Positions 4,432 through 15,768 of a DNA stretch of 64,000 nt are shown here, piece after piece (position 1 is the first letter of the stretch; every line of letters starts with the position of its first letter). The stretch is taken from NCBI GenBank assembly GCA_048184855.1, contig DBEYYU010000069.1, positions 4,264 to 68,263 of the forward strand, in the 5' to 3' direction. Under the pieces are notes generated by a model. The model saw only the letters and a program-made list of their open reading frames with translations, had not been told where the DNA came from and did no database searches. Source of the stretch: Collinsella aerofaciens. Its GTDB lineage: Bacteria; Actinomycetota; Coriobacteriia; Coriobacteriales; Coriobacteriaceae. The position numbers and the translations under genes are program-made.

Positions 4432-5139
4432 GTGACTGACCACGTTTTAGACCGAGCGCAGCTGGCTGAAGCCGTCGGCAACGATATTGCCGACATGGCC
4501 CATTTTTGGATGCTGCGGAAGTTCCAGTTTTTGGAGCCGGCACGCGAACAGTTCGAGATCATTGTCGACCCGTGGCTCAGCTATTGCACCGAGCCTTCGC
4601 AAAACGAAATCATGGCCTACAACATGGCATTTACCGATTGGCTGCTCTTCGAGCGCCCCTATCGCCATGGCAAGACGCTGCTCGAGCTGTATGTTGACGA
4701 ACCGCCGGCATCGCTTTCGCCTGCCTCGCTCAAGCGGCTCGAGCAGGTACGCGACACGCAGTATTTCTCGCGCTTTGGCATTTTGGACAAGGATCCTGCG
4801 AACGGCATGGTTGCGCTGAAGGATACGCGTGCCGACCGTCGCTTTGATGTCTACGACCCGCATATCGTGCAAAAGGAGCATTGGAGCGACGGCGCGATCG
4901 CGGTGCGCCTCGCCTGCATCGACGATGTCTGGCTGACGGCGGGACAGCTCTATCTGTATGACATCGCGCGCCTGAGTGACACGGCGGTCGATGGACCGGG
5001 TGCGGTGCATCCCGAGGATCTGCAGGACGGCTTTGACACCTCGTGCGTCAGCTTCTTTTTGCGCCTGGTCCGCGACATCATGGGCGCCCAGGGGCGGTAC
5101 GTGAAGTCGCTCAACATCTACGAGCAGGAGTGGGAGTAG
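4432..5139 (+). CDS. hypothetical protein (no family recognised)
   Basis: A 235-aa ORF with a GTG start, preceded by GAGGAGGA 4 nt upstream. Amino-acid composition looks coding. The competing antisense ORFs are Arg/Ala-rich artefacts. Confidence 0.6.
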   Translation: MTDHVLDRAQLAEAVGNDIADMAHFWMLRKFQFLEPAREQFEIIVDPWLSYCTEPSQNEIMAYNMAFTDWLLFERPYRHGKTLLELYVDEPPASLSPASLKRLEQVRDTQYFSRFGILDKDPANGMVALKDTRADRRFDVYDPHIVQKEHWSDGAIAVRLACIDDVWLTAGQLYLYDIARLSDTAVDGPGAVHPEDLQDGFDTSCVSFFLRLVRDIMGAQGRYVKSLNIYEQEWE

Positions 5140-5175: not shown

Positions 5176-5312
5176 GTCTCAATCTGTAACGTTTGGCGGC
5201 TGTTTGGGCCCGTAACTGTTACAGATTGAGACGGAAGGTTGGCGGCTGCCGAAAGATCTTGTTCTGTAACAACTAGAGGCTCAAAGACTGTCTTCCTGTT
5301 ACAGATCAAGAC
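5176..5312. repeat. twin-hairpin repeat element, copy A (units 5176-5232 and 5256-5312)
   Basis: Each unit is a 15-nt arm, a 27-nt loop and a 15-nt inverted arm (GTCTCAATCTGTAAC...GTTACAGATTGAGAC; ATCTTGTTCTGTAAC...GTTACAGATCAAGAC). A 23-nt spacer separates the units. The same architecture occurs at 6418, 12055 and 15631. Confidence 0.9.
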
Positions 5313-5338
5313 ATTTGTCAGCGGAGGCAACGGTGACG

Positions 5339-6409
5339 ATGGTCCATTTGTCTGACGTGGTGGTGATGAAAGTGCCTAATACCGTTCTCAAACACAAACA
5401 TGCGACTCGCAACACGTTGGCGCGGAATAGGATGCTCGCGCGGCTCGCGGAGACGGCCAAGCAAGGTGCGCTGCTCGCAACGCATGACAATACCGAGCTC
5501 ATGTGGCTGCGACGCCATGTTGGAACCGACGATATCGCGGAGCCCGAGCCGTACCTGTTCTGTTTTCAGCATGATTGGGATGCATTGACGCCGGCGGAGC
5601 GAGCGCTGAGGACTATCAAAGGGCTTGCGAAATTTCATCCCGATTGGGCGTTTTGGGGATATGACGCCGCGCTGATATGGGGTCTGGAGGTGCCGAATGA
5701 TCTGCTCGGGCCGCGTTTCCTTGTTAAGACTTGCTGTTCGGTGACGTTGAGCGGCGGGTGCAGGTTGTTGCGTCCGCAGATTGCGGGCGCGCTCGAGCGC
5801 GTCGACGGCGTGCGGGTGACGTCGTTTTGGCGCACGGCGGAGGATTGCTTGCTGCGTGCGCCGTTCTCCTACGGGTTGGCGATTGCCGATTCTGCACTGC
5901 GGGTGAAAGACGTATCACGTGGGGATTTGTGCGAGCGCCTCCGCGCCGATTGCGAGGGCAGGCGAGGGTATCGCAGGGCACAGGCGATTGCGTCGTATGC
6001 GGACGGGCTGTCCGAAAACGGCGGCGAGTCTCGGTTCCGAGCGTTCTTTATTGCGTACGGCTTTCCGGTTCCGGAGCTGCAGGTGGAGTTTCGCGACCCG
6101 CTCGATCCGAGCCAGGTGTTTCGCGTCGACTTTTTTTGGCGGCTCGAGGAGGGAACGTGCGTGATTGGCGAGCTGGACGGTAAGGGGAAGTACACCCTGC
6201 AGAGCGGCGAGGCCCGGGAGCCGGTCGACCCATTCGTGGCAGAGCGTCAGCGGGAATCTCATCTGACAATGCTCGGGCACAAGGTGCTTCGGTTTACGTT
6301 TGATGAGCTCAAGAATCCGGGGAAGCTGGTTGAGAAGATGAGGCTGGCGGGTATTCCGCGACGGCCCGATTTGGCTGAGGAGTGGAGACGTCGGTGGTAT
6401 GGGCGCTGA
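5339..6409 (+). CDS. DUF559 / Vsr-like (PD-(D/E)XK fold) endonuclease-domain protein with an N-terminal wHTH-like region
   Basis: The C-terminus (GGESRFRAFFIAYGFPVPELQVEF..FRVDFFW..IGELDGKGKY..LGHKVLRFTFDEL) matches the pattern of actinobacterial DUF559 proteins as I recall it. The track ORF starts at a TTG at 5315, immediately after the hairpin arm. The ATG at 5339, with GGAGG upstream, is more plausible. Confidence 0.7.
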   Translation: MVHLSDVVVMKVPNTVLKHKHATRNTLARNRMLARLAETAKQGALLATHDNTELMWLRRHVGTDDIAEPEPYLFCFQHDWDALTPAERALRTIKGLAKFHPDWAFWGYDAALIWGLEVPNDLLGPRFLVKTCCSVTLSGGCRLLRPQIAGALERVDGVRVTSFWRTAEDCLLRAPFSYGLAIADSALRVKDVSRGDLCERLRADCEGRRGYRRAQAIASYADGLSENGGESRFRAFFIAYGFPVPELQVEFRDPLDPSQVFRVDFFWRLEEGTCVIGELDGKGKYTLQSGEAREPVDPFVAERQRESHLTMLGHKVLRFTFDELKNPGKLVEKMRLAGIPRRPDLAEEWRRRWYGR

Positions 6410-6417
6410 GAGGTTTT

Positions 6418-6555
6418 GTCTTGATCTGTAACGTTTAGAAGTTGTTTGAGTTCGTAATTGTTACAGATCGAGACAAACCGGTGAAACGTCGACCGAATGT
6501 CTCGATCTGTAACATCAAGGGGCCCAACAACCCTGTATCTGTTACAGATCGAGAT
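6418..6555. repeat. twin-hairpin repeat element, copy B (units 6418-6474 and 6499-6555)
   Basis: GTCTTGATCTGTAAC-27 nt-GTTACAGATCGAGAC, a 24-nt spacer, then GTCTCGATCTGTAAC-27 nt-GTTACAGATCGAGAT. It starts 9 nt after the stop of the DUF559 gene. Confidence 0.9.
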
Positions 6556-9562: not shown

Positions 9563-11902
9563 TTATTTTGCCACTTTTGGCTTAAAGGATTTTAAGCGCA
9601 GCGCATTGCTTACGACGCAGACACTCGACAGGCTCATGGCCGCGGCGCCAAACATCGGCGAGAGCTGCCATCCGGTGAGCGGGAAGAACACGCCCGCCGC
9701 CAGCGGAATGCCGATGCCGTTGTAGAACAGTGCCCAGAACAGGTCCTGCTTGATGTTGCGGATCGTGGCGCGCGAAAGCTCGATGGCGCGGGCGACGTCC
9801 ATGAGGTCGCTGCGCATGAGAACCACGTCGGCGCCCTCCTTGGCGATGTCGGCGCCGGTGCCGATAGCAAGGCCCACGTCGGCGCGCGCCAGGGCGGGGG
9901 AGTCGTTGATGCCGTCGCCTACCATGGCGACCTTGCCGCCCACATCCTGCAGCTCGCGGACGTGGCGCTCCTTGTCGGCAGGGAGGACGTCGGCGATGAC
10001 CTGTTCGCTGCTCAGCCCCACGCGGCGGGCGATGGCCTCGGCCGTCACGCGGTTGTCGCCGGTGAGCATGCGCACGTCGACGCCAAGCGAGCGCAGTGCG
10101 GCGATGGCCCCGGCGCTCGTCTCCTTGACCTCGTCCGCCACGGCGATGGTACCGACAAGCTCGCTGTTCTTGGCAAAGAACAGCGGCGTCTTGCCCTCGG
10201 CCGCGAACTGTTCGGCAAGGCCGGCGGGAACCTTCACGCCCAGCTCGTCCATCAGACGCACGTTGCCGGCGGCGATGACATTCTGCCCCTCGCGTGCCGT
10301 AACGCCTCGCCCGGGCACGGCGGTAAAGTCCTCGACCATGCGTGCGACGATTCCGCGCGCCTCGCACTCGGCCATAATCGCCTCGGCCAGCGGGTGCTCG
10401 CTTGAGCGCTCCAGCGCAGCGGCCAGCTTGAGCAACGCCTTTTCGCTCATGGCGGGCGAGCCGTCAGCGCGCGTGGCTACCGTGATATCGGTCACAGCCG
10501 GCTTGCCGCGGGTGACGGTGCCCGTCTTGTCGAGCACCACGGTGCCCACGCTGCGTAGGTTCTCCAGCGCCTCGGCGCTCTTAAACAGAATGCCCATTTC
10601 GGCGCCCTTGCCGGTGCCGACCATAATGGCGACGGGCGTGGCCAGGCCCAGCGCGCACGGGCAGCTGATCACCAGCACGGCGACGGCGGAGGTGAGCGCT
10701 TCGTTCACGCTTCCGGTCAGTGCCGTCCACACCACGAAGGTCACGGCCGAGATCATGAACACCACGGGCACGAACACGCCGGCGACCTTGTCGGCCATGC
10801 GGGCGATGGGCGCCTCGGTGGCGTTGGCGTCCTCGACGAGCTGGATAATCTTGGCGAGCGACGTGTCGGCGCCCACGCGTGTGGCACGGAAGGTAAACGA
10901 GCCGGTGCGGTTGACAGTGGCGGCGTTGACGGTGTCGCCGGCGGTCTTCTCCACGGGGATGGACTCGCCGGTCAGTGCACTTTCGTCCACGGCCGAAGCG
11001 CCCTCGAGTACCACGCCGTCGACAGGGATGGACTCGCCGGGGCGCACACGCAGCACCTGGCCGGGCAGAATGGCATCGACGTCGACGGTGGCCTCGGTGC
11101 CGTCCTCTGCCACGACGGTCGCGGTCTTGGGCGCTAGGTCGATGAGCGCCTCGATGGCGCCGCCGGTCTTGGACTTGCTGCGCGTCTCGAGGTATTTGCC
11201 TACGGTGACGAGCGACAGGATGGTGCCGGCGCTCTCAAAATACAGATTGTCCATGCCCGTCATCATGGCCTCGTGGACCTGACCCGCGGCTAGCTGGTCG
11301 GCCATGATAAACATGGCGTAGAGCGACCAGGCGATGGAGGCGGTGGCGCCCACGGCAATAAGGGCGTCCATGGTAGGCGCGCCGTGCGCGAGTGATTTAA
11401 ACCCGTTGATAAAGTACGCGTCGTTGACGTAGACGATGGGAATGAGCAGGACGAGCTCGGTGAGCGCGAGCGTCATGCTGTGGGTGTGGTCGGTGAAGAT
11501 GCCGGGCAGCGGCCAGCCGAGCATGTGCCCCATGCCTATGTAGAACAGTGGGATGAGGAATACGATCGAGACGATGAGGCGGGTGCGCATGGCAGAGGCG
11601 GCGGCCTCCAACTTTTTGGTCGGCGACTCCATATGGGCGGCGCCGGACCTGGCTTGCGCACTTCCGCTTTGGACAGCGTCGGTGCCCGTGCTGATGGGCG
11701 AGGCCGAGTAGCCCGCGCGGTCGACAGCGGTGCAGATGTCGTCGGGGGAGACCTGCGCAGGGTCGTAGTCCACCAGCATAGAGCCGGCGAGCAGATTGAC
11801 CGCGACGCTTTGGACGCCGTCGAGCTTGCTCACGGCACGGTCCACGTGCGCCTGGCAGGCGGCGCATGTCATGCCGCCCACGTCGAACTTATCTTGAGCC
11901 AT
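9563..11902 (-). CDS. copA: copper-translocating P1B-type ATPase
   Basis: It has an N-terminal HMA domain ([11 protein letters not shown]), the CPC transmembrane motif ([11 protein letters not shown]), the DKTGT phosphorylation site, and the HP and [10 protein letters not shown] motifs. Confidence 0.96.
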
Positions 11903-12006: not shown

Positions 12007-12191
12007 GTTACAGATGAGGGTGGTTGGTTGGCCGATGGACCGTCCCAACCAATCATCTCAATCTGTAACATCTGAGGACCGTTTTGCCTGCTAGATGTTA
12101 CAGATTGAGATGTTGTCTCGCGGGGTTGGGGTTTGTCTCGTTCTGTAACATCTAGACCTGTATCTGCCGAGCTGGTGTTACAGATCGAGAC
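12007..12191. repeat. twin-hairpin repeat element, copy C (units 12055-12111 and 12135-12191), plus a solo arm GTTACAGATGAG at 12007-12018
   Basis: ATCTCAATCTGTAAC-27 nt-GTTACAGATTGAGAT, a 23-nt spacer, then GTCTCGTTCTGTAAC-27 nt-GTTACAGATCGAGAC. The extra upstream arm can pair with the first left arm through GGTTGGTTGG/CCAACCAATC. Confidence 0.9.
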
Positions 12192-15630: not shown

Positions 15631-15768
15631 GTCTTGATCTATAACAATTAGGGCCGATTTTACTCGTTAACTGTTACAGATTGAGACGTTTGTGAGCCGT
15701 GTCGACCGTTTGTCTCGATCTGTAACACGTAGAGGAAGATTCGCCCTGTAGATGTTACAGATTGAGAC
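15631..15768. repeat. twin-hairpin repeat element, copy D (units 15631-15687 and 15712-15768)
   Basis: GTCTTGATCTATAAC-27 nt-GTTACAGATTGAGAC, a 24-nt spacer, then GTCTCGATCTGTAAC-27 nt-GTTACAGATTGAGAC. Confidence 0.9.

Follow-up and report, generated by a model that had tools for sequence, protein, structure and literature searches.

Genes for a nuclease-like protein family are bracketed by their own palindromic repeats in Collinsella and other Actinomycetota

Dispersed palindromic repeats are common in bacteria and, to our knowledge, a cognate protein is known only for the repetitive extragenic palindrome (REP) class with its REP-associated tyrosine transposases (RAYTs), studied mainly in proteobacteria. 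Here we describe a comparable association in a 64,000-nucleotide stretch of Collinsella aerofaciens DNA (contig DBEYYU010000069.1; hereafter the window), where a gene for a 356-amino-acid nuclease-like protein stands between two arrays of palindromic hairpins. Comparison with diverged relatives makes such bracketing a property of the protein family, and the protein is a candidate cognate partner of the repeat, a role suggested by sequence comparison.

Published work on REPs links REP-like hairpins classically to Y1 transposases (PMC3733652, PMC8266576) and describes a GTAG or CGTC tetranucleotide that is conserved at one of the palindrome's ends (PMC3733652). The Collinsella repeats resemble REPs, and the paired REP hairpins called REPINs, in being dispersed intergenic palindromes with two inverted arms, often clustered, and the gene resembles a RAYT gene in being chromosomal, single-copy, vertically inherited and flanked on both sides, with a separate repeat family for each paralog. 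Unlike a RAYT, the flanked protein has a predicted winged-helix region and Vsr-like PD-(D/E)XK domain in place of the HUH Y1 fold. The repeats occupy ~20–25 sites, not hundreds, the examined sites are fixed, and the arrays cluster around the gene; neither the GTAG nor the CGTC tag is present, the arms being RTCTCRATCTGTAAC and the flanks RTTT or AAAY. No array-flanked Y1 or RAYT gene was seen in the sequence compared, the rest of the genome not having been searched, and the sole Y1 gene encountered is an IS200-type tnpA that interrupts an array.

The bracketing recurs well beyond C. aerofaciens. Nine of 11 diverged family members are bracketed by a palindromic repeat of their own, different in each case from the others. 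At L141 (labels of this kind denote the loci compared), where gene order is the same, a 58%-identical ortholog has arrays of ~82-bp period on both sides, built from a different hairpin with arms GTGCRNATYTCAGAC. More distant homologs (L142, L223, L226 and L232; 33–44% identity) follow the same plan. At L142, a 44% homolog in another genomic context, the gene lies between two 64-nt hairpins, 92% identical and each with a 27-nt centre, which are the sole repeats in 7 kb; an 85-nt hairpin flanks the gene at L223, arrays of short palindromes with ~40-bp period do so at L226, and 53-bp units and hairpins at the Olsenella-type loci L232 and L233. Within Collinsella, a paralog (L046, L065, L070) has its own 132-nt flanking repeat, made of 22-bp units and a GAGCGTGGATAATCTCCC hairpin, and each of three Tsukamurella paralogs (L235, L236, L239) has a different flanking repeat, two of these repeat types being dispersed at ordinary intergenic sites as well. 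Repeat types thus number two per Collinsella genome and three in Tsukamurella, one per paralog. When flanks were compared by a uniform test, flank-to-flank similarity above 30.2 bits was found at 6 of 9 target genes, and none of 68 neighbour genes exceeded that level. Chance does not account for the bracketing, and the repeats are linked to the nuclease-like gene.

The second Collinsella repeat, whose type-2 unit is GAGCGTGGATWWTC, combines 22-bp tandem units GACGAGCGTGGATTTTCGGACG with a hairpin GAGCGTGGATAATCTCCC...GGGAGATTATCCACGCTC and brackets a 35–39%-identical paralog (L046:1430-1581 and 2851-2982; also L065, L070 and L107). Dispersed copies lie at L124:6066-6129, L107:3216-3280, L111:3607 and L137:2477 and 4424, with none in the window. 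G+C-rich tandem repeats of 59–60 bp occur on the downstream side only of homolog P0208 (L224:5121-5256). Contigs carrying family members often stop 150–300 nt from the gene, as expected if assemblies break at flanking repeats; three (L227, L228 and L231) were too short for the flanks to be judged.

Table 1. Features of the bracketed gene and of the hairpin arrays, in positions of the window.
Feature	Start	End	Strand	Remarks
Open reading frame for the 356-aa protein	5339	6409	+	ATG at 5339, stop codon 6407-6409
GGAGG ribosome-binding site	5323	5327	+	11 nt before the ATG at 5339, read from the sequence
Predicted winged-helix DNA-binding region	5405	5635	+	Residues ~23-99, from AlphaFold secondary structure
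Nuclease-like domain	6014	6358	+	Residues ~226-340, from conserved motifs and fold matches
Array A, upstream of the gene	5173	5316	.	Hairpins 5176-5232 and 5256-5312, T-rich flanks
Array B, downstream of the gene	6415	6559	.	Hairpins 6418-6474 and 6499-6555
Array C	12055	12191	.	Units 12055-12111 and 12135-12191, between a P-type ATPase gene and a kinase gene
Array D	15631	15768	.	Units 15631-15687 and 15712-15768, downstream of the start region of an FHA-domain gene

In the window, the repeat unit is a palindrome of ~57 nt in which two 15-nt arms, the first of them RTCTCRATCTGTAAC, enclose a 27-nt centre. This type-1 unit can be written as RTCTCRATCTGTAAC-N27-GTTACAGATYGAGAY; the hairpins of the window read GTCTYRWTCTGTAAC / GTTACAGAWYRAGAC around their 27 nt, and in the first of them all 15 arm positions are complementary. 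The window contains 17 occurrences of the arm motif where 0.34 would be expected, a count equalled by none of 100 shuffles, and the eight extra matches make up the two further twin arrays, C and D (Table 1). Array C has 1–3 units in other strains, and the site of array D is also occupied in L234, L066, L072, L081 and L087. Both gene-flanking copies fold far more stably than shuffled sequence (z = -6.6 and -10.0).

The original prediction, made from the sequence of the window, had placed twin-hairpin copies at 5176-5312 and 6418-6555 around a single open reading frame, and both the coordinates and the hairpins hold, as do the distances of 26 nt from array A to the ATG and 9 nt from the stop codon to array B. 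Its further observation that the copies share a first-loop type and a trailing ATTT is also borne out (loops 82% alike in direct orientation, ATTT ending both copies). It erred in taking the 137-bp twin as the repeat. Hairpins are spaced 80 nt start to start in array A and 81 nt in array B, and ~370 sampled units form arrays of 1–7 units with a 79–81-bp period, so the unit is the single ~57-nt hairpin, present in 1–5 copies on each flank of the gene.

Across species, 12 of the 15 positions in the arm show at least 95% invariance. The centre carries a symmetric pattern, A..TAG....WWW....CTA..T, the unit is near-palindromic over its 57 nt, and the inner loop is unpaired. Tests of arms and loop found no covariation, the variable arm positions 1/57 and 6/52 changing independently between the two arms; the arms are therefore conserved as sequence and not as a selected stem, a pattern that suggests recognition by a protein rather than selection on an RNA stem. 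The units have T-rich flanks (RTTT or AAAY) with no clear duplication visible. Within arrays, units are present in both orientations and arms alternate in orientation, while loops and 23–24-nt linkers fall into recurrent types that recombine as a mosaic and are common to different sites and species. An RNA-structure reading of the hairpins was dropped once the arm and loop covariation tests proved negative. Likewise, the units do not fit a terminator pattern and lack a T-run. Rfam searches of the hairpins, at gathering and E-value thresholds, returned chance microRNA-like matches only, which leaves them outside its known RNA families, and a tRNA search returned none.

Scanning a genome collection with the hairpin pattern gave at least 120 stretches and, among the matches listed, all are from Collinsella genomes or differently labelled bins; to that extent the type-1 repeat is restricted to Collinsella. 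Of 149 sampled arrays, 148 are intergenic, in tandem, convergent and divergent gene contexts alike. Those between tandem genes lie nearer the upstream stop codon (median ~55 nt), and 37 of the 123 arrays classified lie between convergent genes. The 149 arrays fall into 20 flank-sequence clusters, one of them a singleton, and we therefore estimate roughly 20–25 sites per Collinsella genome; a 900-kb C. aerofaciens record has 18 BLAST places for the repeat and was the sole match to an array query among 72,556 records of a plasmid collection.

These sites tend to pair and cluster around the nuclease-like gene. Fifty-four of 145 sampled arrays (37%) come from six sites that lie no more than 10 kb from it on either side, none mapped elsewhere in the 95-kb reference, and we estimate the local enrichment at ~40-fold. 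Near the gene, nearly every locus has arrays at the sites examined; the two that flank it carry 1–5 units in 94 of 95 (site A) and 95 of 96 (site B) Collinsella loci, and five neighbouring intergenic sites never bear an array (~95 loci). An association of repeat and gene is supported by ~20–25 sites that tend to pair and cluster in place of hundreds scattered at random. The number of units per site differs between strains (20 contigs carrying the gene), giving tandem 79–81-bp units of strain-variable number at fixed intergenic loci, the arrangement of variable-number tandem repeats (VNTRs).

The gene itself is a resident. It is present in all ~95 Collinsella loci, which represent many strains and species, including 10 fetched through its upstream neighbour, with no empty site among them; it is single-copy, found in one place in the 900-kb record, and gene order is the same in ~100 loci. 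The exact 356-aa product is recorded in 1357 assembly blocks from human-gut metagenomes. Its ratio of nonsynonymous to synonymous substitution rates (dN/dS) is 0.14 over ~100 orthologs, against 0.07–0.08 for two neighbour genes. It is vertically inherited, under purifying selection, and not a presence/absence cassette. The idea of a deletable cassette therefore fails for this gene by the refuting condition that came with it, orthologous loci that always carry the gene and show no cassette-like polymorphism, and the related suggestion of an integron-like gene cassette found no integron features to sustain it. A metagenome scan with the family alignment, used for this polymorphism test, returned close Collinsella orthologs only.

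Searches for mobile-element context were negative within their scope. No homolog of the gene appeared in a viral-contig scan, and four family members used as queries against the plasmid collection matched only chromosome-sized Collinsella and Tsukamurella records with housekeeping genes. No transposase was found among the window open reading frames covered by a non-exhaustive scan, no integrase is annotated within 19 kb of the gene in L234, and the annotated 41 kb contain no cas genes. In L234 a "recombinase family protein" is encoded ~20 kb upstream of the gene. The immediate neighbours are an amidohydrolase gene and a gene for a 235-aa protein of unknown family. The latter lies upstream of array A (window 4432-5139), matches nothing in Pfam, NCBIfam or PADLOC, is kept beside the nuclease-like gene in Collinsella, and has a 248-aa counterpart in L141 but none at the Olsenella-type locus. 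The Collinsella and Olsenella-type loci do share an upstream gltD-like gene (Fer4_20/Pyr_redox_2 domains).

In the AlphaFold model of the protein (predicted local distance difference test score 91) the N-terminus forms a winged-helix region, followed by a middle domain and, at the C-terminus, an alpha/beta domain. The latter carries the motifs RVDF...VIGELDGKGKY...ERQRESHL..G..VLRF, and its best local fold matches are the catalytic domain of I-Bth0305I (3r3p, probability 0.96, template modelling score 0.62 on the target) and the DUF559-type protein NGO0050 (3hrl), with other PD-(D/E)XK nucleases lower in the list; the matches are weak overall (Foldseek E 0.2–2.6). An alignment of 54 homologs shows D184, E230, S231, R234, Q248, D264, E278, G281, K284, E302, R305 and R318 to be invariant, and all of these except D184 fall within the nuclease-like domain. 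Predicted fold and conserved motifs thus support a Vsr-like PD-(D/E)XK nuclease domain. They support the DUF559/Vsr-fold assignment first proposed for the gene, to which sequence searches lend little: Pfam DUF559 (PF04480) gives E = 0.029 and 14.7 bits, below the cut-off of 20.6, and none of eight other family members matches it.

With I-Bth0305I, a Vsr-like EDxHD homing endonuclease, and NGO0050 the protein shares an acidic residue in the first helix, an aspartate on one strand and E-x-D-G on the next; it differs in having ~225 extra N-terminal residues and in lying outside introns and phages, and it has K/Y in place of the Vsr histidines. Searches of NCBIfam, PADLOC and the PDB, the last by sequence and by profile, returned no hits for it. 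The N-terminus has weak AbiEi_4 matches in 4 of 54 and in 2 of 8 family members, and relatives carry the NCBI name "AbiEi family antitoxin domain-containing protein". No AbiEii toxin gene adjoins the gene, so that the type IV toxin–antitoxin arrangement is not seen here. An exhaustive homolog search gave 4824 clusters at 50% identity, mostly full-length.

One repeat type per paralog, a single-copy vertical gene, repeats on both its sides and dispersed copies together make up the signature of RAYTs and REPINs. We tentatively favour a partnership of that kind built on a different nuclease fold, a reading to which we give nearly an even chance. The protein would read the sequence of the arms and make nicks or cuts there, and this activity would start new arrays, keep them homogeneous and change their size, with a preference for the neighbourhood of its own gene; it would then stand to the repeat as a RAYT transposase stands to its REPINs, an analogue in function. 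DNA binding, cleavage and any role in spreading or maintaining the repeat are inferred here. We favour a cognate nuclease because the arms are conserved as sequence, the arrays cluster around the gene and the catalytic-type residues are invariant. By extension, the winged-helix/Vsr-like PD-(D/E)XK family (~4800 clusters) may constitute a widespread and hitherto unrecognised actinobacterial system in which each chromosomal member has a gene-bracketing repeat of its own that can spread to further intergenic sites, and so a second, mechanistically independent invention of within-genome replicators of the REPIN–RAYT type, with a restriction-endonuclease fold where RAYTs have the HUH fold; for this wider proposal we put the chances somewhat under even. 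Full-text searches of the literature gave no description linking such proteins to palindromic repeats.

Several observations weigh against this reading. Copy number is low (~20–25 sites), and all sites examined are fixed across species with no sign of recent transposition. Genes for an Nramp protein and an AAA_16 ATPase are bracketed by type-1 arrays too. Two of the 11 family members judged (L224 and L229) have no shared flank repeat, and the third Tsukamurella repeat type is barely dispersed beyond the gene flanks, so that the constant feature of the family is the flanking pair and not dispersal. In 5 of 95 loci a frameshift or stop disrupts the gene, and the flanking arrays there look normal. 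A RAYT may also lie elsewhere in the Collinsella genome, beyond the part examined, and we infer the partnership from sequence and predicted fold rather than from biochemistry or genetics. The disrupted orthologs (L014, L020, L192, L201 and L203) may be real pseudogenes or assembly errors; arrays show no difference between loci with intact and disrupted genes, a comparison that is uninformative.

Alternatively, the protein might be a DNA-binding regulator or architectural protein, with the arms as operator- or centromere-like winged-helix sites. Those flanking the gene would then provide autoregulation or a local nucleoprotein domain, the other sites would form a small regulon or binding cluster, and the nuclease-like domain would be secondary or inactive. 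Arms conserved in sequence without covariation suit such a model, as do sites that cluster around the gene like parS near parB, array positions fixed across species and the weak AbiEi likeness of the N-terminus in Pfam scans and in the NCBI names of relatives. We nevertheless think it unlikely: catalytic-type residues are invariant in 54 diverged homologs, 37 of 123 arrays lie between convergent genes, an unexpected place for a promoter, the number of units ranges freely from 1 to 5, and no AbiEii toxin gene is adjacent. Nor does a selfish unit of the homing-endonuclease or repeat-bounded cassette type seem probable. The gene would in that case travel with, or insert into, the palindromic repeat, the two-sided copies being integration scars or homology for copying and the dispersed copies potential targets, not products. 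The lack of an empty site at ~95 loci, the single gene copy per repeat type per genome despite ~20 "unfilled" sites, the viral-contig scan without a homolog and the chromosome-sized plasmid-collection matches all speak against this, and the gltD-like upstream gene common to Collinsella and Olsenella-type loci indicates that the location is old. These points have to be set against flanking copies that form direct repeats of 64–132 nt in several lineages, family members that appear as single-gene insertions amid unrelated housekeeping neighbourhoods, the homing-endonuclease-like fold and the array-bounded presence/absence polymorphism that is real for another gene.

The repeats might instead be mobilised by another enzyme, for example a RAYT or IS200-family Y1 transposase, with the nuclease-like gene as no more than a favoured neighbour. 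Y1 transposases are the classic partners of REP-like hairpins (PMC3733652, PMC8266576), and an IS200/IS605 tnpA does occupy one array site in one C. aerofaciens strain; that tnpA, however, is strain-specific, has unrelated end hairpins of its own and interrupts an array rather than being flanked by arrays. Because this model also leaves unexplained why each paralog in two distant genera has its own repeat type, we regard it as distinctly improbable. Finally, the arrays could be passive intergenic palindromes, terminators or messenger RNA stabilisers, whose position on both sides of the gene is coincidental, an explanation to which we attach very little credence. It would account for the intergenic position of 148 of 149 arrays, for their placement nearer the upstream stop codon between tandem genes and for the bracketing of other genes, yet bracketing is found for 9 of 11 diverged members and for none of 68 neighbour genes, repeat types are paralog-specific, and the units do not match a terminator pattern, lacking a T-run. 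With ~25 sites among ~2000 intergenic regions, moreover, the estimated chance of double flanking is ~1e-4 per gene, and flanking by chance is very unlikely.

Other described repeats share parts of the Collinsella arrangement. Enterobacterial bacterial interspersed mosaic elements have alternating arms, recurrent linkers of fixed length (here 27 nt and 23–24 nt) and a unit number that varies by site, whereas the Collinsella sequence is unrelated to theirs and genus-specific, with an ~80-bp period and low copy number. VNTRs of the mycobacterial interspersed repetitive unit type are likewise intergenic tandem repeats of 40–100 bp in an actinobacterium, varying in number between strains at fixed loci; in Collinsella the units are long palindromes, coupling to small open reading frames was not seen, and a cognate flanked gene is proposed. 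Integron attC cassettes also place a structured imperfect palindrome beside a single open reading frame, and the Collinsella arm ends ...TGTAAC / GTTACA... bear a loose likeness to the RYYYAAC / GTTRRRY core sites, but here the repeats are two-sided arrays of 1–5 units with neither IntI nor attI, the arms are perfect over 15 bp in place of bulged attC stems, and the gene shows no cassette polymorphism. IS200/IS605 elements too are bounded by hairpin-forming sequences; in Collinsella the enclosed gene is neither tnpA nor tnpB, and the unit keeps a fixed position and is not present in multiple copies. A CRISPR array has direct repeats and unique spacers, whereas here successive arms face opposite ways and the loops and linkers belong to recurrent types.

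If the family is indeed the partner of lineage-specific hairpin repeats in Actinomycetota, a function would follow for a large family now annotated "hypothetical" or "AbiEi antitoxin domain". It would offer a second model for how short repeats spread, are homogenised and are kept over long periods within genomes, and would give biochemistry a collection of proteins to test, each paired with the 15–35-nt DNA arm whose sequence it recognises. Given unit numbers that vary between strains at fixed sites in an abundant human gut genus, the arrays could also serve as strain-typing markers.

Further array sites are of interest in their own right. An Nramp (MntH-like) gene just upstream of gltB is bracketed by two type-1 arrays (L036:3011-4610, L071:6221-7980 and L048:2519-5235), which with the four of the window makes six array sites within ~20 kb. 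At the rubredoxin/Nramp array site of C. aerofaciens NZ_OY725717.1 (L234), ~9.6 kb upstream of the nuclease-like gene and just outside the window start, an IS200/IS605-family tnpA (152 aa, L234:9700-10524) with unrelated end hairpins of its own has left only a right half-arm, GTTACAGATTAAGAC, at 10510; it is absent from strains L036, L048 and L071. Elsewhere, an array site has a 1.18-kb segment that carries a single gene (368 aa, AAA_16/ATPase_2, weakly BrxC/D-like; L064:2314-3981, also L056) and is bounded by two ~245-bp direct copies, each a twin-hairpin array with 45–65 nt of flank that includes the 3' end of the next gene. In three other genomes the segment is absent and exactly one copy is left (L069:5677-5921, L090:5683-5932 and L099:355-601), so that the cassette polymorphism with one retained repeat, predicted for the nuclease-like gene and not found there, does occur for this ATPase gene.

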